A DNA stretch of 64,000 nt from a phage, in the sequence record PZ053912.1; one strand, written 5' to 3'. Shown here one piece after another: positions 22,366-52,297 of the stretch. The notes under the pieces are model-generated. The model had not been told where the DNA came from. It did not search any database and saw nothing but the letters and a program-made list of their open reading frames with translations. The position numbers and the translations under genes were made by a program. Position 1 is the stretch's first letter; every line of letters starts with the position of its first letter.

Positions 22366-22836
22366 TTAATCATGTTTCCACACCCCATCGGTATTTGACC
22401 AAAGTCGCTGATTATCTGATCCTCGCCACAGCTTTTTAGTCGGAAGATTTTTCTCATACTTCCCATCAATAATAACATCAACATATTTAAGCATTTCTAG
22501 TTGTTTAATATCTTCAAACTTATATCCTGTCCACAACCAAATGCTTTTATTAGGATAAAGATTTTTTACTGTTTGAACGATGCAATGAACAACATCTCGG
22601 TTGTCAGGATAGAGAGGGTCACCTCCGGTTATAGTCAATCCTTCTATATAATCATTATTCAAGCATTCAATTAATTGTTCTAGTGTCTCTCCAGTGAATG
22701 GAATGCCATTTCTAGCATTCCATGTTGATTTATTATAACACCCTTCGCATTTATGCAAACAACCTGTAACGAAAAGAACGACCCTGCATCCAGGGCCATT
22801 CACAAAATCGCAAGGATAAAATCTATCATAATTCAT
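22366..22836 (-). CDS. nrdG: Anaerobic ribonucleotide reductase activase NrdG (radical SAM)
   Basis: 156 aa; CLHKCEGCYN (CxxxCxxC); adjacent to nrdD. Confidence 0.9.
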   Translation of the reverse strand: MNYDRFYPCDFVNGPGCRVVLFVTGCLHKCEGCYNKSTWNARNGIPFTGETLEQLIECLNNDYIEGLTITGGDPLYPDNRDVVHCIVQTVKNLYPNKSIWLWTGYKFEDIKQLEMLKYVDVIIDGKYEKNLPTKKLWRGSDNQRLWSNTDGVWKHD

Positions 22837-24650
22837 TGGTGTTTAACCCTATGCATGATTTCTTTATTTTTACCGAGATTAAATCCGCGTTCGTTCGGAT
22901 TTCCCAAATAACCGCATGTTCTTCTTATGGTGTTCATCTTTTTAGGATCACTTTCTCCACAAATAGAACAAACAAATCCGTTTTCAGTAGGAGTCATTTC
23001 ATGGGTACTTCCACATGTAAAACATTTATCTACTGGCATATTAACACCAAAATAATCTAAATGCTGTGCAGCATAATCCCATACAGCCTCAAGACCTTTT
23101 AGGTTATTTTTCATATCAGGAAGTTCAACATAAGAAATGTGACCACCTGTTGCAATGAAATGATACGGGGCTTCGCGAGAAATCTTTTCAAACGGAGTAA
23201 TATTTTCTTCTACCGAAACGTGGAAACTATTAGTGTACCAGCCTTTATCAGTAACATCTTTTACACTTCCATATTTCTCAGTATCAAGTTTACAGAAGCG
23301 ATAGCACAGGTTTTCAGCAGGTGTAGAATACAAGCTAAAAGCAAAACCGGTTCTTTCAGTCCACTGCTTAAGACGAGCATTCATTTTAGTTAAAATTTCC
23401 TGTCCAATATCACGTCCGACAAGAATATTCAATTCGTGAATACCAATGTATCCTAGGGACACTGAACTTCTACCATTTTTAAATAACTCAATTATATCGT
23501 CATCAGGTTTAAGACGAACCCCGAATGCACCTTCTTGGTAAAGAATAGGAGCTACAGTTGCTTTAACACCCTTTAAAGAACTAATTCTACACATCAAAGC
23601 TTCAAAACACAGATCCATTCGTTCATTAAATAGCTCAACAAATTTCTGTTCATTGAATTGTGTTCCAATATAAGAATCTAATGCAATACGAGGAAGATTC
23701 AGTGTTACAACACCAAGATTATTACGTCCATCAAGAATTTCATTACCAGTCGAATCTTTCCATACGCTCAAGAAACTACGACAGCCCATCGGAGAAACAG
23801 GAACTGAAGAACCAGTAATAGCTTTATTATTCTTAACCGAAATAATGTCAGGATACATTCTTTTGCTTGCACATTCTAACGCAAGTTGTTTAATATCATA
23901 GTTCGGATCATCTTTATAAAGATTAACACCTTCTTCAACAAACATAACAAGTTTAGGAAAAATAGGAGTTATCCCATCACGACCAAGGCCTTTAATGCGG
24001 TTTTTAAGAATTGTCTTCTGAATAATTCGTTCAGTCCAGTCAGTTCCAGTACCAAATGTAATTGTCACAAAAGGCGTTTGTCCGTTTGAACTAAAGAGAG
24101 TATTTACTTCATATTCATAAGCTTGGAATGCATCGTATACGTCTTTTTCTGTTTTAGATTGGGCGTAATTCAACGCATCAGCGATTTGCCATTTTTCTGC
24201 ATCCTCAATATGTTTTGCATAGGTGCGTTTAACATAAGGAGAAAGTACTTTATCTACATTCGCAAATGTAGTTCCACCATACTGATGCGAAGCAACTTGT
24301 GCAGTAATTTGTGCCATAATTGCAGTAGCAACGCCAATAGATTTAGGCGTTTCAATTTGAGCATTGCCTAATTTAAATCCATTCTCAAGCATTCCTTTTA
24401 AATCTACTAAACAGCAATTAGTAAATGGAAGAGCAGGAGAATAATCAATATCATGGAAATGGATAATTCCGCTTTCATGTGCTTTCATAATAAAAGACGG
24501 GACCATATTTTTGGCAATGTGCTTAGACACAATACCAGCCATAAGGTCCCGTTGAGTTGGAAAAACACGAGAATCTTTATTAGCATTCTCGTTCAAAAGA
24601 TCTTTATTAGTTTTATGAATTAATCCTTCAATTTCTTTTTCAATTTTCAT
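22833..24650 (-). CDS. nrdD: Anaerobic ribonucleoside-triphosphate reductase NrdD (glycyl radical enzyme), uninterrupted
   Basis: 605 aa; C-terminal Cys cluster CFTCGSTHE...CSICGESD and glycyl-radical tail RTCGYLG. Confidence 0.95.
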   Translation of the reverse strand: MKIEKEIEGLIHKTNKDLLNENANKDSRVFPTQRDLMAGIVSKHIAKNMVPSFIMKAHESGIIHFHDIDYSPALPFTNCCLVDLKGMLENGFKLGNAQIETPKSIGVATAIMAQITAQVASHQYGGTTFANVDKVLSPYVKRTYAKHIEDAEKWQIADALNYAQSKTEKDVYDAFQAYEYEVNTLFSSNGQTPFVTITFGTGTDWTERIIQKTILKNRIKGLGRDGITPIFPKLVMFVEEGVNLYKDDPNYDIKQLALECASKRMYPDIISVKNNKAITGSSVPVSPMGCRSFLSVWKDSTGNEILDGRNNLGVVTLNLPRIALDSYIGTQFNEQKFVELFNERMDLCFEALMCRISSLKGVKATVAPILYQEGAFGVRLKPDDDIIELFKNGRSSVSLGYIGIHELNILVGRDIGQEILTKMNARLKQWTERTGFAFSLYSTPAENLCYRFCKLDTEKYGSVKDVTDKGWYTNSFHVSVEENITPFEKISREAPYHFIATGGHISYVELPDMKNNLKGLEAVWDYAAQHLDYFGVNMPVDKCFTCGSTHEMTPTENGFVCSICGESDPKKMNTIRRTCGYLGNPNERGFNLGKNKEIMHRVKHQ

Positions 24651-35138: not shown

Positions 35139-35696
35139 TTAGTTTTTGTAATATCGTAAAGGGTTAATATGGAATGAAAGCATTGCGCGTGGAATAGGAC
35201 GACTCAAAAGACTCTTAAGTTTCCAACCACAGTAAACACGCAGATAAAATGTAATACCACCAACCTTAAGATAAGGTATAGCAGCGAATAATCCCCATGC
35301 CGACTCGTTCCAAACTAAAAGATATCCATGATGTGCCGGATCAGGAGATCCAGATTTAGTTTCGGCGTTGCCTTTATAGTGCCATTCTGATGAAGCTTCG
35401 CGACCTAAAACATGATACGAAAAATTATATGCTTTGTTGCGCCATAGCCAAGCTACGCGTTGAGCATATTTACCTATAACAGGAATTTTACGTATTTTAG
35501 ACCAACGTTCAACATGGCCGCGGTCACCATCGATAGGATTATCGTAAGTCATCATCCAGTCAAAGCCATAAGGTAGTTTACCGGTTTTTTCACTATGGAA
35601 TGGAACTACAAATGGTGCTAGAATAATTGCTAAAATCGCTGCGATCCAATCTATAGGAACAAGAACAACCCAACTTATGTATTTTAAAAATTTCAT
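35139..35696 (-). CDS. Membrane-anchored hypothetical protein, apparently late-expressed
   Basis: 185 aa; N-terminal transmembrane span; TATAAATA late promoter 25 nt upstream. Confidence 0.55.
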   Translation of the reverse strand: MKFLKYISWVVLVPIDWIAAILAIILAPFVVPFHSEKTGKLPYGFDWMMTYDNPIDGDRGHVERWSKIRKIPVIGKYAQRVAWLWRNKAYNFSYHVLGREASSEWHYKGNAETKSGSPDPAHHGYLLVWNESAWGLFAAIPYLKVGGITFYLRVYCGWKLKSLLSRPIPRAMLSFHINPLRYYKN

Positions 35697-35720
35697 ATAT
35701 CCTCTCTTAGTTTACAAGGA

Positions 35721-35728
35721 TATTTATA
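35721..35728 (-). promoter_or_regulatory. T4-type late promoter TATAAATA
   Basis: Exact consensus on the minus strand, immediately downstream of a terminator and about 25 nt before the ATG at 35696. Confidence 0.6.
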
Positions 35729-35757
35729 CAAAAAAGCCCCAACCATAAGGAAGGGGC
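35729..35757 (-). terminator. Rho-independent terminator (GCCCCUUCC...GGUUGGGGC plus U6)
   Basis: Seen directly; follows the stop of gene 35765..36067. Confidence 0.6.
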
Positions 35758-35764
35758 AGGTAAA

Positions 35765-36067
35765 TTAGATAGATGTAGGCTCTAATTTTATTTTCATGAA
35801 CTCTGCAAATTGTCTGGCAGTTTTTATGCCTTGTTCATGACATTCAAATGCATCATCACAGGGGCTATTTTTGTAATGCTTTGCCATATACTTATAGAAT
35901 TTTTCAGAATTCTCGACATTTTGAATTTCAAACAAAGTATATACGTTTTTAATCCCTGATTCCATAAAGTTGTCAAAATATGGGTCGGTGTACGCAGTAC
36001 CAACGATAGGAGTTGTTGCTGCAAAAAACCCCAGCATCGCCATGACAGCTATCGCTCTTAAGGCCAT
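35765..36067 (-). CDS. Secreted or periplasmic small protein
   Basis: 100 aa; N-terminal signal-peptide-like MALRAIAVMAMLGFFAATTPIVGTA. Confidence 0.5.
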   Translation of the reverse strand: MALRAIAVMAMLGFFAATTPIVGTAYTDPYFDNFMESGIKNVYTLFEIQNVENSEKFYKYMAKHYKNSPCDDAFECHEQGIKTARQFAEFMKIKLEPTSI

Positions 36068-36079
36068 ATAGGCCTCCTG

Positions 36080-36292
36080 TTAATTTTGGCCAGTATTTAT
36101 TTTTCGCCTTTGGACGGCCTTAACATCTGTGAGGTATTTTTCCAGCTTGCGCTTGCGTGTATAATCAGCTTTAGAACCAGTTTGACGGATATCCTCGTTT
36201 AAATGAGAAATAGAATGTCCTAATTCTCTTCGGATTTCATCCAGTTGGGTTACAGTAAGATTACGAAGTTGTCTTTCGTTTAATTGCTGCAT
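36080..36292 (-). CDS. Hypothetical protein
   Basis: 70 aa ORF. Confidence 0.4.
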
Positions 36293-36319
36293 ATATACCT
36301 CTTGGTTAGATATTAGTAT

Positions 36320-36901
36320 TTATAACAACCCTGTCAAATCATTCCAATGCTTCCGGCATAATGACACATATCTATCAGTATCACCAATTTCAATTTGACT
36401 GCCATCTGTAATTGGAAGTCCGTCTTCCGTGACTCTAGCTACCATTGTGGCCTTTTTACCACAATGACAGACACCTTTAAGTTCAACAAGCTTATCGGCA
36501 ATAGCCATTAACGCTTGAGAACCTTCAAATAGATTACCTTTAAAATCTGTTCGTAGTCCATATGCCATTACCGGCACATTGTATACGTCAACAATACGAC
36601 TAAGTTGATACACCTTTTCAGTAGTTAAGAATTGAGCTTCGTCAACAAATACACAATGAATATCCTTTTGTGCTGCAGCCCATTTATAGAACTCAAAAAT
36701 ATCCATGTCTTTTGTAATTATATTGGCGTCCTGACGAATACCAATACGAGAGACTATTTCACCTTTTGAATCGCGAGTATCAATAGCCGGTTTAAGAACT
36801 AATACACCCATGCCACGTTCTTTATAGTTATGTGCGGCCGTAAGTAATGAAGCAGACTTACCAGCGTTCATAGCGGCATATGTAAAAATTAAACTAGCCA
36901 T
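36320..36901 (-). CDS. tk: Thymidine kinase
   Basis: 193 aa; Walker A AAMNAGKS; C-terminal Cys pairs CHCG ... LCRKH typical of type II thymidine kinases. Confidence 0.92.
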   Translation of the reverse strand: MASLIFTYAAMNAGKSASLLTAAHNYKERGMGVLVLKPAIDTRDSKGEIVSRIGIRQDANIITKDMDIFEFYKWAAAQKDIHCVFVDEAQFLTTEKVYQLSRIVDVYNVPVMAYGLRTDFKGNLFEGSQALMAIADKLVELKGVCHCGKKATMVARVTEDGLPITDGSQIEIGDTDRYVSLCRKHWNDLTGLL

Positions 36902-37091
36902 AAGAGTCCTTAGTTAAATTTTCTAAATATGTTTCTAAATCATTTTCAGCTTTATCGATAGATTTTACTAATTCGTAGTATGTTTCAGCATCTCCATAAT
37001 CCGAAGCCAATTCAAAAGATAAATCTCGTTCTAAACTAATAATTTCGCTGATTAAAAATCGTATTTCATTCTTTTGTTCGCGAGTAATCAT
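36894..37091 (-). CDS. Hypothetical protein
   Basis: 65 aa ORF. Confidence 0.4.
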   Translation of the reverse strand: MITREQKNEIRFLISEIISLERDLSFELASDYGDAETYYELVKSIDKAENDLETYLENLTKDSYG

Positions 37092-37294
37092 AAGGAATTT
37101 ATATAATCAATAAGTTCTTGTTCTTTATCGTCGAAATCTTTACACAGTTCTTCGTATTCATCGGTATTAAAAGGACCGCATTCATCGCAAACTTTTTCCA
37201 ATTCACTATTTTTATCCATAACTTCGTGAATAAGAGAAAACAGTCTGTCTTTTTGTTCTTTACTTAAACTCATAACCATGTAACCTTTAAGCAA
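37088..37294 (-). CDS. Hypothetical protein
   Basis: 68 aa ORF. Confidence 0.4.
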   Translation of the reverse strand: MLKGYMVMSLSKEQKDRLFSLIHEVMDKNSELEKVCDECGPFNTDEYEELCKDFDDKEQELIDYINSL

Positions 37295-37497
37295 TATTCT
37301 TCTACATGTTGTTTACGACCTTTCTTATCAATAAAGGTATATTCAACGAATGTTCCAATATAGTCTTTATCTACATCATGTGGACTATTAATTGGGCATT
37401 TAGTACGGCAAATACGTTCCCATTGACGAATAATTACTGCCTTATTCTTTGGGTCATATGGATGTGGATAATGTATATTCATAATAATGGTTCCCAA
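37270..37497 (-). CDS. Hypothetical protein
   Basis: 75 aa ORF. Confidence 0.4.
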   Translation of the reverse strand: MGTIIMNIHYPHPYDPKNKAVIIRQWERICRTKCPINSPHDVDKDYIGTFVEYTFIDKKGRKQHVEEYCLKVTWL

Positions 37498-37976
37498 TCA
37501 ACAATCACAATTTCTAGTTTAGTGGAATACGTATCTAAAATCTCTTCGATGACATCCCAGTTTCCACCACCGATACCTGCACCAATTCTTGGCATATAAA
37601 TTACAGGCTTTGTTATCTTATTCTTTCCGAATTCATTTAATTCTATTATACAATTCATTAAAGCAGAGTACTCAAAATTAGGTCCCGGCTCAAACTGCGT
37701 ATAAAGATTAAAGCAATAAGCTTTATGGGTCTTAAAATATTTTTCATAAACTGAATAAGTCCCGAGTTTAGACTCGTCTCCGAATTCGGTTTGAAGTTTA
37801 TCGGCTTCTAAAATTTTTGGATAAGCCTTTGCTAATTGTCCTGCCACACCAGCGCCCATTGTATGAAAACAATTACACCCATGAGCAATATTATTACCTT
37901 TAGAAAACAGGGCGACAATATCGCCCTTGATATAGTTTTTAATCACTTGCTGCAAGTCCTCTAGTATAAGAGTCAA
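37479..37976 (-). CDS. Macro-domain protein (ADP-ribose binding/processing)
   Basis: 165 aa; GNNIAHGCNCFHTMGAGVAGQLAKAYP and IGAGIGGGNW resemble macro-domain glycine-rich loops. Confidence 0.6.
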   Translation of the reverse strand: MTLILEDLQQVIKNYIKGDIVALFSKGNNIAHGCNCFHTMGAGVAGQLAKAYPKILEADKLQTEFGDESKLGTYSVYEKYFKTHKAYCFNLYTQFEPGPNFEYSALMNCIIELNEFGKNKITKPVIYMPRIGAGIGGGNWDVIEEILDTYSTKLEIVIVDWEPLL

Positions 37977-38286
37977 CTAGACGGTCCACCATAGAATTGC
38001 ATGCTGCCTTATCTTTAGGTTCCGCCACCGAGCATTCTAATATTTGCCATTTTTTATAGTATCTTTTAATTAAGGTAGACGCCTTGAACCTACTAGACGC
38101 CCCATCTTTTTCTCCGTCTTTATACGCATATAACAATTTTTGTGAAAAATCTACTTTACACTCTTGACTTTTACCACAATAATCAGACGCTGTTCTGTTT
38201 GTATACTCCGTTACATCAGTATATGTAGTATTAGCAAGAGCGTTAAATGAAACCAAGCCAACTATTAAAGCCAACATTTTGGTCAT
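37939..38286 (-). CDS. Secreted small protein
   Basis: 115 aa; signal-peptide-like MTKMLALIVGLVSFNALA. Confidence 0.45.
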   Translation of the reverse strand: MTKMLALIVGLVSFNALANTTYTDVTEYTNRTASDYCGKSQECKVDFSQKLLYAYKDGEKDGASSRFKASTLIKRYYKKWQILECSVAEPKDKAACNSMVDRLVDSYTRGLAASD

Positions 38287-38825
38287 TCTTTTATTTCCAG
38301 TAGTTTATTTGATTTAAGGTAATTAGCCTTTTCTAGGACTTCAGAAGCATATTTACTTCCAGCACTTGTCTTCCATCCCGCATTATATGAGGATATAGCT
38401 TTTCTTATATCCCCATTATGTATATTTAACCAATAAGAAAATTCGATATAAGCCCATCTGGCTGAATTAGACCGCTTAGATAGCATTTTCTTAATTTGGG
38501 CATCAGTCATATTATAACCAAGCTGGTTAATTCTTGCCCTCATTGTTGGTAGATAATTTTGGAACATTCCATACGCATGGTGACCTTTCTTATTTTTAAG
38601 ATTAATACCGGCAGATGATTCCTGCCATAGTATTGCGGCCATTATGTATCCAAGTCCTTTCTTATGCATATTTTCATGCGTTTTAAATTTTCCGTCCTTA
38701 GAAAACTGTTCCCCAAACTGATAAGCATAATTCAAGTTATCGAGTTGGACATTACTAAAAGTATGCTCGGAGCTATGTGCTGATAATGAAAGAGCAAATA
38801 GACCAGCGAGTAGTGCTTTTCTCAT
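38283..38825 (-). CDS. Exported lytic transglycosylase-like protein (SLT domain)
   Basis: 180 aa; signal peptide MRKALLAGLFALSLSAHS; motifs WQESS, AYGMFQ, YNAG. Confidence 0.55.
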   Translation of the reverse strand: MRKALLAGLFALSLSAHSSEHTFSNVQLDNLNYAYQFGEQFSKDGKFKTHENMHKKGLGYIMAAILWQESSAGINLKNKKGHHAYGMFQNYLPTMRARINQLGYNMTDAQIKKMLSKRSNSARWAYIEFSYWLNIHNGDIRKAISSYNAGWKTSAGSKYASEVLEKANYLKSNKLLEIKE

Positions 38826-38833
38826 GTTTACCT

Positions 38834-39292
38834 CTAGATTTTAATCACTGCTTTAGAAGCTTTTCCTGGTAGTCGTTTACTGTTAATAATAGCCATTCTG
38901 CATTGAAGAGTCTTCATTTTGAATGCTGGATTTTCGCGACAAACTGTAAGTCCTAACCAAAGATTTCCATCAGTTATTTCTAAACGGCCTGGACGATATT
39001 CGACACCTTCGACAAAATCTTCATCAACATCTGGACGTGCCGGCATTGATAAAAATTCTGCAACTTCTTTAACATGATTTTTTACTTTACGAAATAATTC
39101 AAAAACGTAATTCTCATCTATTTCTCTCTGGATGGCACGATCTAAGAGATGTTGAGAATACTTGATATGAAAGCCTGGTAGTCCAAGAGACTTTGCAGCA
39201 TCTTTTATACCGGCATTTATTTTGCGGAACTCCGTTTCAAAGATTCGACGGAGTTTATTACGGCGGATAAAAACGTCAGAATTGATAGTCAT
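38834..39292 (-). CDS. regB: RegB sequence-specific endoribonuclease
   Basis: MTINSDVFIRRNKLRR...HIKYSQHLLDRAIQREIDENYVFELF...YRPGRLEITDGNLWLG...CRMAIINSKRLPGKASKAVIK matches recalled T4 RegB. Confidence 0.9.
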   Translation of the reverse strand: MTINSDVFIRRNKLRRIFETEFRKINAGIKDAAKSLGLPGFHIKYSQHLLDRAIQREIDENYVFELFRKVKNHVKEVAEFLSMPARPDVDEDFVEGVEYRPGRLEITDGNLWLGLTVCRENPAFKMKTLQCRMAIINSKRLPGKASKAVIKI

Positions 39293-39300
39293 TTTTGATT

Positions 39301-39350
39301 TCTCCTCTAGTTGACAGGTCTATAGTAACACATCTAGAGGAGAAGTAAAC
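39301..39350 (-). promoter_or_regulatory. regB early promoter (GTTTAC-17-TACTAT) enclosed in a 10-bp hairpin pairing the regB SD with an anti-SD in the promoter spacer
   Basis: Arms UCUCCUCUAG (39334-39343) and CUAGAGGAGA (39301-39310); -10 at 39322-39327. Confidence 0.55.
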
Positions 39351-39354
39351 AACT

Positions 39355-39570
39355 TTATTGATAAAATGGAGTTAAAGCCCAAGATTCTTTAGATACCATA
39401 TCGGCGAAATGCCTCATCTCTTCGATTTGGCGACGACGTTGGTCAGCATAGTCTTCTTCGCCTTCTTCCTTACAATCATCAAGGTCTTCTTCAAGATACT
39501 TTAAGTATTCACTACAAATTTTGTTGACCTTTTCTTGAAAGTCCAATAACCCAGTAATAGTAGAAGCCAT
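39355..39570 (-). CDS. Hypothetical acidic protein
   Basis: 71 aa ORF. Confidence 0.45.
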   Translation of the reverse strand: MASTITGLLDFQEKVNKICSEYLKYLEEDLDDCKEEGEEDYADQRRRQIEEMRHFADMVSKESWALTPFYQ

Positions 39571-39836
39571 TAGTATTTTTCCTCAGGTCGAAATACTGCA
39601 CGGCATGCCCACATGCTGGCTTCTTTTAGATGTTGCTTAGCATACTTAAGAGCCTGCACTGCATCCATATCTTCTTTGGTTTGTTGCTCTGATTCATTTT
39701 CTTTCAAGATATATGCTTCTTCAATCAGAGCATCAAACATCAATCCAAGACGGACTTCTGCATCTTTAATAGCGTTCACTTTACTGATTTTATCATCGGT
39801 ATGCGGCTTGTAGCCTTTGATGTCTTCAATCGACAT
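39570..39836 (-). CDS. Hypothetical protein; start trimmed to MSIEDIKG
   Basis: ORF 39570..40004 overlaps the upstream ORF by 180 nt in another frame. Confidence 0.4.
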   Translation of the reverse strand: MSIEDIKGYKPHTDDKISKVNAIKDAEVRLGLMFDALIEEAYILKENESEQQTKEDMDAVQALKYAKQHLKEASMWACRAVFRPEEKY

Positions 39837-40050
39837 AAGGAATTTCCTCATCGGTGGCAAGGTCATATTCGACCAATTGGATAGGCTCATTAATACCATA
39901 TCCACGTACAGTGATATCGGTTGTCGGATATTTTCCAGTAATATCACCCATTCTAAATGCTTCAATGAATGATTGCTCGCCTGAGCAACTAAACCAGGCG
40001 GCAAAACATTTTAAAACATCTTCAGACCCTTCTATAATCAATTTAGCCAT
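39826..40050 (-). CDS. Hypothetical protein
   Basis: 74 aa ORF. Confidence 0.45.
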   Translation of the reverse strand: MAKLIIEGSEDVLKCFAAWFSCSGEQSFIEAFRMGDITGKYPTTDITVRGYGINEPIQLVEYDLATDEEIPYVD

Positions 40051-40412
40051 TATAGACTCTCAGTAAAGGTACGAGCGATAACATCGCGCTGCTGTTCCGG
40101 AGTCAGAGAGTTAAAGCGAACTGCATAACCGGATACACGGATGGTCAGCTGCGGATATTTTTCCGGATGCTTAACTGCATCTTCCAGAGTTTCACGACGC
40201 AGAACGTTAACGTTCAGGTGTTGACCACCTTCAATTTTAACTTTAGGTTGATGTTCAATTTCAATTTCACGGGCATTCAAACCGTAGAAAATTTCCGGGT
40301 CTACAATAGCGTCTTCTTTAAAAGTCTTAGAGACAATAATCCGGGCTTGAGTACCGTCTTCAAAATAAATAGTGCCTTTATGTGCACCTTCAAGAATTTG
40401 ATATGCTTTCAT
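40050..40412 (-). CDS. Autonomous glycyl-radical cofactor (GrcA/YfiD-like; T4 Y06I-type)
   Basis: 120 aa; C-terminal [43 protein letters not shown] with the RVSGY glycyl-radical motif. Confidence 0.8.
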
Positions 40413-40418
40413 ATAACC

Positions 40419-40727
40419 TCAATTAGAAAATAAATTTATCCAAGATTTTTCTTTAATCAAAAATGGGTCGGAATTAAACGCCATTAAACTTTGAGTGATT
40501 AATCCCTTAAATGGCCCATCAATAAATTCCATTTTGAAATGCGGAATACTAGTCATCAACCGTGCATTAGGAGCAGTACAAAGAACATGCTGCCCTGCGA
40601 ACGGACCTTTAGTCAAACGATATCGTTTAGGTTTAAAATGGTAAATCTCGTAATTTTCTACAAGAGCCCTTTTATTGCATGCTGGGCTGTTATAACAATA
40701 CTCAAAAACTTCAATAGTGGTCATCAT
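40419..40727 (-). CDS. Hypothetical protein
   Basis: ORF 40419..40775; start uncertain. Confidence 0.4.
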   Translation of the reverse strand: MMTTIEVFEYCYNSPACNKRALVENYEIYHFKPKRYRLTKGPFAGQHVLCTAPNARLMTSIPHFKMEFIDGPFKGLITQSLMAFNSDPFLIKEKSWINLFSN

Positions 40728-41263
40728 TGCATTCCAATCACAAAAAATTGAGGACGAGCAATACCGCCTATGCAATATTTGCTTTTGCAGCAGTGCTGTA
40801 CTGATTTAATATGGACATTGTAAATCTTATCCATATCAGGAGCTTTAATAGGCTCGTCAATTATGTATAGAATACGAGAAAGCGTTAATCCACGGAATTT
40901 AGAACCTTCATTGCCAATAAAACTACGGACAGAATCAGTAAATAAACGGAATCGAATATCATCGCTAGAATAACGAGAAAATTCTTTTTTAATGTTGCCA
41001 GCAGAAATTTTAGCATAAGCTGAAGTATTAGAAAGAACAATAACTGTTCCATCGTCGTGCAGCCAATTAGCAGCAAAATTAGTTACTGCAGTGGATTTAC
41101 CTGATTGTCTGCCACCGTCTAAACGAAGTGTACAGTACTGCTTGAGTATGTCTTCAAATGGTGGGACATAACCGTTCTTACAAATTTCTTCTACTCTAGC
41201 ATCAGAATGGTGTGTAAAAGCATTCATCAGGGATAGATAAGGTCCAGTTAAAAATGTTTTCAT
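40724..41263 (-). CDS. P-loop NTPase, hypothetical
   Basis: Walker A GGRQSGKST; start taken at MKTFLTGP after GAGAGAA. Confidence 0.5.
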   Translation of the reverse strand: MKTFLTGPYLSLMNAFTHHSDARVEEICKNGYVPPFEDILKQYCTLRLDGGRQSGKSTAVTNFAANWLHDDGTVIVLSNTSAYAKISAGNIKKEFSRYSSDDIRFRLFTDSVRSFIGNEGSKFRGLTLSRILYIIDEPIKAPDMDKIYNVHIKSVQHCCKSKYCIGGIARPQFFVIGMQ

Positions 41264-41535
41264 TTTGTTCTCTCTAAGTTTGGGCCATTCCATGGCACAT
41301 GAATTGTCCATTTCTGTATTTACCCATTACCGCACTTGGGCTCGACCTTATTACAGGTTGGCGGGAATCCCTCATAGAATCATGAGGTCCAGCTTGTTCC
41401 CATGTTATTTGAATGTAAATATTTTTGCCTTAATACTTATACCAGTGTGGCTTCATTAAAATTTTTTCATCGAGTCATTTTACCTCTCCAAGTAATTATG
41501 ATTATACTATCACAATTCTAGGAGAAAGTAAACTG
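41264..41535 (-). other. 272-nt untranslated leader with an early promoter-like element near 41500-41530, a 3-codon uORF and internal hairpins
   Basis: No ORF longer than 8 codons on the minus strand; hairpin CCUCAU-GAUUCU-AUGAGG. Confidence 0.35.
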
Positions 41536-41838
41536 TTATTTACCTTTAATTACTTTAGCTGCTTCGATAGCCGCTTGCTGAAGGTCATCCATAGACATAC
41601 CGAATTTAGAAGCAAAGTTATCAATTTTCTTTTCAACAGCATTCAAAGGCTTGGCCTGTTTACCTTCATTAGCGCCAGGAAGAGCGAGAATACGCTCTTT
41701 GTCAATATAAAGGCTTACAAGTTTCTTACGGTCTTTATCGGACAAATCGTGAAATGAATGGGCCTTTTTATTTATAGCGGCTTCTAATTTACCTGCACTC
41801 ACTCGCGCTTCAGTAATAAATTCTTGATATGTTTTCAT
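41536..41838 (-). CDS. ipIII: Internal head protein IPIII-like, with N-terminal capsid-targeting sequence
   Basis: MKTYQEFITEARVSAGKLEAAINKKAHSFHDL...; the leader MKTYQEFI-x-E is the recalled T4 CTS. Confidence 0.8.
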   Translation of the reverse strand: MKTYQEFITEARVSAGKLEAAINKKAHSFHDLSDKDRKKLVSLYIDKERILALPGANEGKQAKPLNAVEKKIDNFASKFGMSMDDLQQAAIEAAKVIKGK

Positions 41839-41929
41839 TTTTGTTTCCTTGTTTGTTTTGATAGAGTAATTATACCATATTAATACTTAAGCGTAAACTG
41901 TTTAAGCTTTACCATCGCAACCTTTTTCC

Positions 41930-42343
41930 TTAGTAAATTGATTTACCATAGTATTTGTACCAAGTAGGACGTTGAGCAATTTTTTCATCTAAACGAGCTT
42001 GACTTATCGCAATGGACGCTTCGGTCGGGACATAATTATTACGAAATTCGGCAGGGATGTCGGAAATATCTTGGACAGTCGTGTCCTTGATTTTGAAACC
42101 ACGTTTCAAGCATTCAGCGATTAGCTCGATTTGACGTAAACGTAAAAATTCGAGTTTGTCGTAAAAGAATGTTACATGACCTGTGCCTAAGATAAATGTC
42201 GGGGAGATTTTAAAATCCTTTACACGTTTACCGTTTTGAACATGTTTACGGACTGCACCAAATACGCGTGGTAATTCACGATACTCAGCCATAAGATGTT
42301 GGTCGGTCAGTTCAGAAACAAGTGTTAAATTGATACGAGTCAT
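41930..42343 (-). CDS. denV: Endonuclease V (pyrimidine-dimer DNA glycosylase) DenV
   Basis: [34 protein letters not shown]... matches recalled T4 DenV; start at internal ATG after GGAGGAA. Confidence 0.9.
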
Positions 42344-42346
42344 AAT

Positions 42347-42400
42347 TTCCTCCAAGTAGTTGATGAATGTATAGTATCAAAACCCTTGGAGGAAGTAAAC
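42347..42400 (-). promoter_or_regulatory. denV early promoter (-10 TACTAT at 42371-42376) enclosed in a 10-bp hairpin pairing the denV SD with an anti-SD at the -35/spacer
   Basis: Arms ttcctccaag (42347-42356) and cttggaggaa (42385-42394) on the plus strand. Confidence 0.5.
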
Positions 42401-42401
42401 A

Positions 42402-42683
42402 CTATTTTTCTGAAGCGCCTGAAATATATTTTTCAAGACGTTGTTTCATCAGCGAGCCATTCTTAGCGATTTCTTCCGGTTTATCACACATACGCAACAA
42501 GGCTTCAAGCTTAACGATATCACTGGTGCGCTCAAATTTGCGAGTATCTATCTTACTAGCAAGTTCAGAAATACGTGCTAATAGACTTTCAGCTTCAACC
42601 AAAGCTGCACCTAGCTTGGTTGCAAATGTGTCAGTAGCTTCGTTAAGAATAGATTCTGATAAAAATTCACTATATGTTTTCAT
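42402..42683 (-). CDS. ipII: Internal head protein IPII-like, with capsid-targeting sequence
   Basis: [15 protein letters not shown]...; start at the internal Met of ORF 42402..42698. Confidence 0.75.
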
Positions 42684-43202: not shown

Positions 43203-43661
43203 TTATAGGAGGGTAGTGAGCACCTTATATAATGATTTGCCCATTACATATTCCCATTGAGAAGGTTTAATTAAAGCGAATGCATCAAATTCAGGAATCT
43301 GTCGTCCGTCTGGGAATGTATGATAGGAATTACAAACACTGTTTCTGAATTGCTCGTGCTCTACAGGGATGGTATATAGGAACAGATGAATATTCTTATT
43401 GTCTGAGTAATGATGTTCACCTAGGTCTTTCAGGAAGGCAGGGTCATATTGTGTAAACCCAGTTTCTTCTTCGCATTCGCGAATAGCGGCTTCAATAGGA
43501 GATTCGGCGGGCTCGACACGTCCTTTAGGAATATCCCACCGATGAGCTAAAGAACCTTTAGGACGAGAACCAGTTACACGCCCCATGAATAATTCTTTAT
43601 CTTCGGTAAGGAAAATAATACCGGCTGATAGTTCTTTCACTTTATTTTTCTTACTCATCAT
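43203..43661 (-). CDS. nudE: Nudix hydrolase NudE
   Basis: 152 aa; Nudix box GRVEPAESPIEAAIRECEEETG. Confidence 0.85.
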   Translation of the reverse strand: MMSKKNKVKELSAGIIFLTEDKELFMGRVTGSRPKGSLAHRWDIPKGRVEPAESPIEAAIRECEEETGFTQYDPAFLKDLGEHHYSDNKNIHLFLYTIPVEHEQFRNSVCNSYHTFPDGRQIPEFDAFALIKPSQWEYVMGKSLYKVLTTLL

Positions 43662-52055: not shown

Positions 52056-52132
<77 letters not shown>

Positions 52133-52136
52133 ATGC

Positions 52137-52210
52137 CTCGAATTGGTGACCCTGGCTGGTTTCGATCCAGCTACCTATCAGTTATGAGCTGACAGCTCTC
52201 CCATTGAGCT
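52137..52210 (-). tRNA. tRNA with CAU anticodon (Met, or Ile if lysidine-modified)
   Basis: Cloverleaf drawn by hand: acceptor GGCCCUG/CAGGGUC, D-arm GCUC/GAGC, anticodon loop CUCAUAA, T-arm GCUGG-AUCGAAA-CCAGC, encoded CCA. Confidence 0.8.
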
Positions 52211-52297
52211 ACAGGGCCTAAATAACTTTCTATTATGAAAGGCACTTTAGAGTACCTTTGGTAATAGAGGGTATGAATTAATAATAACACATAATTC

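Follow-up and report, generated by a model that had tools for sequence, protein, structure and literature searches.

The question raised by this locus is what a small macro-domain protein does for the phage that encodes it. The window, by which we mean the whole stretch of DNA analysed here (64,000 nucleotides from sequence record PZ053912.1), belongs to a T4-like Mosigvirus (the RB69 group of T4-like phages), and over the 3.5 kb in which the gene lies it shows 98.5% identity to members of this group, among them Shigella phage phi25-307. The gene adjoins the tk.3 and vs orthologs in a block with the order rI, rI.1, tk, tk.1, tk.2, tk.3, adfM/tk.4, vs, vs.1 and regB, as found in T4. An initial annotation had described it as a macro-domain gene among early genes whose product might reverse ADP-ribosylation or degrade ADP-ribose-derived immune signals. 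The early placement matches what we take to be the transcription of the tk–vs–regB block in T4. A promoter scan of positions 35500–42500 identified 21 sigma-70-like sites compared with the 25.2 expected from shuffled sequence, and as there was no excess the scan is uninformative on timing.

The gene had been placed at 37479–37976, which is a minus-strand open reading frame of 165 amino acids when read from a TTG codon and whose translation carries both of the motifs quoted at the time, HGCNCFHTMGAGVAGQLA and PRIGAGIGGGNW. We retain the reading frame and the stop side but not the start, as the TTG at 37976 only marks the longest mechanically called frame, and we prefer the GTG at 37946 because the ATG of T4 tk.4 aligns with this internal codon and the annotated orthologs of the protein are 155 amino acids long. 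This choice is also favoured by the GAGGA found 10 nt upstream of the GTG (the same sequence precedes the tk.4 ATG of T4 by 11 nt, at the corresponding position). The ten extra N-terminal codons of the TTG form coincide with the 3' end of vs in a different reading frame, and this extension is probably not translated within the AdfM/Tk.4 protein. The overlap between the vs stop codon (TAA at 37939–37941) and the GTG start is 8 nt, which would allow translational coupling, whereas T4 tk.4 has an ATG start and a 4-nt overlap. Residue numbers used throughout refer to the 155-residue protein, and the features concerned are as follows.

37479–37946, minus strand: adfM/tk.4 ortholog coding sequence, 155 amino acids from GTG with the stop codon at 37479–37481, encoding a stand-alone ALC1-like macrodomain.
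37947–37976, minus strand: in-frame stretch upstream of the GTG, starting at the TTG at 37976 and covered by the initial annotation, corresponding to the vs 3' end in the other frame.
37957–37961, minus strand: Shine-Dalgarno-like GAGGA within the end of vs, as read from the sequence.

The macro-domain assignment was upheld and goes far past what chance would give, with Pfam, PHROG and the predicted fold all giving this family and no fold outside it being seen. The profile search proposed in the initial annotation returned Pfam Macro PF01661 above its gathering score (28.1 bits compared to 22, E = 2.2e-6, profile positions 2–117 of 118), and PHROG 335 was matched at 7e-67. A high-confidence AlphaFold2 model of the window protein produced with 62 homologs (pLDDT 95.8, pTM 0.91) has the three-layer α/β/α macro fold with a central mixed sheet. 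The top Foldseek matches to this model in the PDB were TARG1, placed first, followed by Poa1p, DarG, BT1257 and SCO6735, and the same set was recovered when the family profile was compared with PDB sequences (E 4.5e-17 to 1e-11). We therefore place the protein in the ALC1-like (TARG1/DarG/SCO6735) class, within which the nearest structural neighbours of the predicted model lie, clearly apart from other classes. As both glycine-rich loops and the conserved Asn25 are present, the protein is predicted to bind ADP-ribose.

The window protein is 84% identical to T4 Tk.4 (NP_049723) over 155/155 residues with no gaps, and this full-length identity together with the T4 gene order makes the gene the Mosigvirus ortholog of tk.4, which has recently been renamed adfM. 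The two proteins have the same length, the same position between tk.3 and vs, an overlap with the vs stop codon and all of the family-invariant residues in common, and differ at residue 127, which is Gly in the window protein and in 109/121 homologs but Lys in T4 Tk.4. It should be noted that the gene is already known, with near-identical proteins annotated in the databases as 'macro domain protein' or 'phosphatase' and a named anti-defence function for the T4 ortholog, and given these labels and the published T4 genetics little is added here by way of discovery. The only match in the PADLOC defence-system library was DarG (1.4e-8), and the only NCBIfam match was the DarG antitoxin model NF048014 (31.6 bits compared to a cut-off of 250, covering positions 4–146 of 338). 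We rejected filing the protein as a DarG antitoxin because of this low score, the missing C-terminal domain and catalytic Lys, and the lack of a neighbouring darT.

The function of the T4 ortholog comes from a preprint of November 2025 in which a T4 transposon library was screened on E. coli expressing DarTG2 (bioRxiv 10.1101/2025.11.20.689424), whose toxin DarT2 ADP-ribosylates thymidines in single-stranded DNA. There, tk.4 was the single significant hit, T4 became sensitive to DarTG2 on clean deletion of tk.4, and the gene was renamed adfM (anti-DarT factor, macrodomain) with a structural likeness to M. tuberculosis DarG being noted, while enzymatic removal of ADP-ribose from DNA by Tk.4 was said only to be what 'seems likely'. 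The finding fits the earlier report that T4 retains full DarTG2 resistance in the absence of adfA and adfN (PMC11825919). The Tk.4 protein has been detected in T2-infected cells, and our literature search turned up no biochemical study of T4 Tk.4 or of close relatives. [quoted passage not shown] The suggestion that the protein reverses ADP-ribosylation therefore agrees with the evidence, the substrate being DNA and not protein, since T4 Tk.4 is required against DarTG2 and the class removes thymidine-ADP-ribose. The T4 anti-DarTG2 factor is conserved in the RB69/Mosigvirus group.

We then compared the active site of the window protein with those of characterised members of the class, using the following elements.

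37839–37883, minus strand: HGCNC motif and glycine-rich loop 1, residues 22–36, HGCNCFHTMGAGVAG, covering His22-Gly-Cys-Asn25-Cys.
37695–37709, minus strand: N80-L-Y-T-Q84, with Gln84 in the column of TARG1 K84, DarG K80 and SCO6735 Gln85.
37557–37592, minus strand: glycine-rich loop 2, residues 119–130, PRIGAGIGGGNW, with Gly126 at the TARG1 Asp125 position.

Loop 1 ('MGAGVA') aligns with 'RMGAGIA' of TARG1 and is TARG1/DarG-like, and loop 2 was aligned to PRIGCGLDRLQW in TARG1, PRIGCGLAGGTW in SCO6735 and PRIGCGLAGGKW in BT1257. A profile alignment against TARG1 and a MAFFT alignment that takes in SCO6735, BT1257 and TARG1 agree in placing Gln84 at the TARG1 Lys84 column and Gly126 at the Asp125 column, with NLYTQ84 set against NMIGQ85 of SCO6735 and NMIGQ of BT1257 (both alignments were needed, as single-sequence phmmer comparisons with BT1257 and SCO6735 mis-gapped the Gln motif). 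The PDB chain numbering of SCO6735, with a 20-residue tag offset, reproduces the Val25, Lys34, Gln85, Lys89 and Lys94 of PMC9411070, where a structure-based alignment equates TARG1 Lys84, DarG Lys80 and SCO6735 Gln85. The window protein thus has neither the catalytic Lys of the DarG/TARG1 active site, which is replaced by Gln84, nor the TARG1-type Asp125, which is replaced by Gly126 (Ala in most homologs); DarG too is without this Asp (PMC9411070). Asn25 is kept in 119/121 close homologs and in all 142 sequences of a cluster-representative set (the window protein and 141 new representatives of clusters at 50% identity), and Gln84 is invariant in both (121/121 and 142/142). The invariant motifs of the T4-type family as a whole are H-G-C-N-C, D49, N-x-Y-T-Q and G-x-G-I-[AG]-G-G-x-W.

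Because Gln84 is invariant at the catalytic-Lys column, we regard the T4-type family as Gln-type, in which it resembles SCO6735 (Streptomyces coelicolor, PDB 5E3B) and BT1257 (Bacteroides, PDB 2FG1), two ALC1-like proteins with about 22–30% structure-based identity to the window protein. SCO6735 cleaves thymidine-ADP-ribose and its Gln85 is essential, as Q85A and Q85E both abolish activity, and in the mechanism proposed for it the Gln holds the distal ribose in position and the reaction is started by a backbone-held water acting as proton donor (PMC9411070). We could not, however, assign the window protein to the SCO6735/BT1257 subclass in full, as both the long mobile loop and an equivalent of Lys34 are absent. 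A mobile loop some five residues longer and carrying Lys89 and Lys94 is characteristic of this subclass (PMC9411070), and in the MAFFT alignment a 5–6-residue Lys-rich insertion is found in the SCO6735 and BT1257 rows only, whereas the loop following Gln84 has the TARG1/DarG length and Lys34 is replaced by Ala32.

The remaining comparisons separate the window protein from each of its better-known relatives. The macrodomain of DarG (PDB 5M31/5M3E from Thermus aquaticus and 5M3I from M. tuberculosis) has about 20% structure-based identity to it, and differs in having the catalytic Lys80 where the window protein has Gln84, a C-terminal DarT-binding domain and an adjacent darT. Human TARG1/OARD1 (PDB 4J5R, 4J5S), which reverses thymidine ADP-ribosylation, has a similar loop 1 ('MGAGIA'), an equally short mobile loop and a 'PRIG-x-G' motif in common with the window protein, but its Lys84/Asp125 catalytic dyad corresponds to Gln84/Gly126. 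PhiKZ gp104, also called AdfM, is like T4 Tk.4 a stand-alone phage macrodomain that counters DarTG2, and has been found in vitro to strip a TNTC oligonucleotide of the ADP-ribose added by DarT2, with activity lowered by N23A (Cell Rep 2026, PMC13309987). Its Asn23 lies opposite Asn25 of the window protein in the hhalign alignment, a residue thus common to both, yet it is a remote homolog (BLASTP aligns 23 residues, while hhalign gives 96% probability and 21% identity), it keeps the DarG-type Lys ('FPTKD') where the window protein has Gln84, and it is imported into the phage nucleus, a compartment that T4-like phages are without. Two remotely related phage macrodomains have therefore been named AdfM independently, and as PhiKZ gp104 is Lys-type and T4 Tk.4 is Gln-type, the one name covers two mechanistically different proteins.

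Judged from these alignments, the T4-type family has Gln, not the catalytic Lys, together with a short mobile loop and is neither DarG/TARG1-like nor fully SCO6735-like. The invariant Gln, found where DarG, TARG1 and PhiKZ AdfM have Lys, appears to go beyond the published literature we found. A T4-type enzyme cannot use the DarG/TARG1 lysine mechanism, and the residual novelty of the locus is this Gln-type, short-loop active site. We think it rather unlikely that the T4-type AdfM family is a third mechanistic type within the ALC1-like class and perhaps a broader eraser; if it were, its members might take ADP-ribose off other bases, RNA or proteins, such as the marks made by other ART-based defences or by Alt, ModA and ModB, and their role would reach past DarTG2.

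Our preferred reading is that the tk.4/adfM ortholog counters DarTG2 by the catalytic removal of thymidine-ADP-ribose from phage DNA, and taking the whole chain of steps together we consider this probable. Host DarT2 would ADP-ribosylate thymidines in single-stranded phage DNA and so block replication, and the window protein would bind the ADP-ribosyl-thymidine and hydrolyse the bond between base and ribose, releasing ADP-ribose and restoring replicable DNA. The glycine-rich loops would hold the diphosphate, with Asn25 and Gln84 holding the distal ribose, and the protein would in effect be an orphan DarG-like antitoxin lacking the C-terminal DarT-binding domain. Given the changes of Lys to Gln84 and of Asp125 to Gly126, SCO6735-type chemistry seems the more likely, in which the Gln would position the distal ribose and a backbone-held water would be the proton donor. 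We infer both catalysis on DNA and the same DarTG2 phenotype for the window ortholog, the phenotype having been measured for T4 Tk.4 only and not for the 84%-identical Mosigvirus protein, which counts against the reading to that extent. Other points on the same side are drawn from the alignments: the catalytic Lys of DarG/TARG1 and the Asp125 of TARG1 are absent, as are two features credited with the DNA activity of SCO6735 (Lys34, aligned with Ala32, and the Lys-rich insertion of 5–6 residues), and the N-terminal half resembles Poa1p at least as well as DarG.

The loss of the DarG/TARG1 Lys also lends itself to a different explanation, namely that DarT2 is neutralised mainly by binding of the toxin or of its ADP-ribosylated product, with catalysis not being required. 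The catalytically dead variants SCO6735 Q85A, DarG K80A and TARG1 K84A all inhibit DarT in vitro, SCO6735 most strongly (PMC9411070), and the ICP1 anti-DarT factor AdfB acts purely through DarT binding (PMC11481870). We nevertheless regard this as quite unlikely, as the DarT-binding domain of DarG falls outside the region matched by the window protein (positions 4–146 of 338 in NF048014), the PhiKZ macrodomain AdfM is catalytic (PMC13309987), and the residues of the ADP-ribose site (Asn25, Gln84 and both glycine-rich loops) are invariant in hundreds of divergent homologs, as would be expected of an enzyme.

If the protein is an enzyme, its main job might still be to erase ADP-ribosylation from proteins or RNA (by the phage Alt, ModA and ModB or by host ART toxins), with the anti-DarTG2 phenotype being a side effect. 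T-even phages encode three ADP-ribosyltransferases (Alt, ModA and ModB), which speaks for this, and the very large and mostly stand-alone family (18,077 representatives) suggests roles past a single defence system. SCO6735 and TARG1 also hydrolyse protein-linked ADP-ribose (PMC9411070). On the other hand, T4 does without tk.4 on plain E. coli K-12 and needs it only against DarTG2 (bioRxiv 10.1101/2025.11.20.689424), bacterial DarG2 macrodomains counteract DNA ADP-ribosylation only (PMC13309987), and Tk.4 is not known to be tied to Alt or Mod targets. As the main role this is improbable; as an added activity alongside the removal of ADP-ribose from DNA it is possible.

A role as a small-molecule enzyme, either a Poa1p-like ADP-ribose-1''-phosphate phosphatase or an O-acetyl-ADP-ribose deacetylase, is implied by the database labels 'phosphatase' and 'A1pp', but such names are carried over from the domain family and we consider the role very unlikely. 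Its only phenotype on record is the DarTG2 one (bioRxiv 10.1101/2025.11.20.689424). The yeast phosphatase Poa1p (PDB 6LFQ–6LFU) matches the window protein poorly in the C-terminal half and, in a tentative hand alignment, appears to have Ser at the Gln84 position. Its substrate, in eukaryotic tRNA splicing, is a small molecule, and we know of no evident source of Appr-1''-p in T4 infection. The breakdown of ADP-ribose-derived immune signals such as the gcADPR or His-ADPR of Thoeris, the other activity raised in the initial annotation, deserves almost no credence: to our knowledge DarTG2 uses no ADP-ribose-derived second messenger, the nearest structural class of the predicted model comprises DNA/protein glycohydrolases and not the signal-binding class, and in the literature we found neither support for it nor any report of a macrodomain cleaving gcADPR or His-ADPR, with the genetic screen having tied tk.4 to DarTG2 (bioRxiv 10.1101/2025.11.20.689424).

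Further analysis of the family indicates that it is widely distributed, with tblastn homologs in 2,801/50,697 phage records (about 5%) and an exhaustive HMMER search giving 18,077 cluster representatives at a threshold of E ≤ 0.001, of which 1,199 also pass E ≤ 1e-30. Among the 150 best-scoring of these, stand-alone proteins predominate and the median length is 159 amino acids. No family member was found in the genome of T5, the standard DarTG2-sensitive phage, where the best hmmsearch E value was 0.067 compared to 3.9e-64 for the T4 control in the same search. A review places T5 and SECphi18 among the targets of DarTG2 and RB69 among those of DarTG1, which agrees, though only indirectly, with a working ortholog in the RB69 group. 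We also considered whether T5.105 (L004 8089–8595), labelled in RefSeq as 'Sir2 (NAD-dependent deacetylase)', might hide a macrodomain, but Pfam gives a HAD_SAK_2 domain instead (4e-20). From the domain match the RefSeq annotation appears to be wrong, and a genuine SIR2 domain is found next to it, in T5.102.

One further element lies inside the start of the adfM/tk.4 coding sequence.

37909–37927, minus strand: conserved RNA hairpin with an 8-bp stem (AGGGCGAU-AUU-GUCGCCCU) and a 3-nt loop, followed by GUUUUCU.

The hairpin is 12 nt past the vs stop codon and 19 nt into the coding sequence, was flagged as terminator-like (RNA MFE -13.8 kcal/mol, z = -2.8), and sits in a 26-nt stretch which is identical in T4, synonymous sites included. 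One possibility is that it acts between vs and tk.4 as an attenuator or to set RNA stability; another is that its conservation simply results from protein constraint on IKGDIVALF, and it may be unrelated to the function of the macrodomain protein.

Several other genes in the window merit comment. The vs.4 ortholog (39570–39836, minus strand), some 1.6 kb upstream of adfM, contains the Pfam Acb2/Tad1 hairpin domain (PF24729, 3e-17) and is presumably the anti-CBASS nucleotide sponge Acb2, and with an Acb2-type gene this close to adfM there are at least two anti-defence genes in this stretch (the mechanical vs.4 reading frame extends to 40004 and 144 amino acids, compared to 88 in the annotated orthologs). 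A NUDIX hydrolase gene at 43203–43661 (minus strand; PF00293, 1.9e-15) is probably the ortholog of T4 e.1, and enzymes of this type act on ADP-ribose, the product that a macrodomain glycohydrolase would release. The small GrcA/YfiD-like glycyl-radical domain protein encoded at 40050–40412 (minus strand; PF01228, 2e-18) is annotated as an autonomous glycyl radical cofactor in phi25-307. Such proteins can replace the damaged portion of a glycyl-radical enzyme, and a putative NrdD, judged by size, is found at 22833–24650. The tk.1 and tk.2 orthologs (36894–37091 and 37088–37294, minus strand) both match phrog_653, which is of unknown function (2.9e-21 and 1.1e-23), and are apparently small acidic paralogs arranged in tandem. 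Adjacent genes for tRNA-Arg (tct) and tRNA-Met (cat) lie at 52064–52218 (minus strand), and no other tRNA genes were found in the window. Finally, the vs.1 ortholog (38283–38825, minus strand) shows weak similarity, below the threshold, to the SLT lytic transglycosylase domain (PF01464, 20.0 bits compared to a cut-off of 21.3), and one GenBank record names a protein of the tk–vs–regB block as a lytic transglycosylase.
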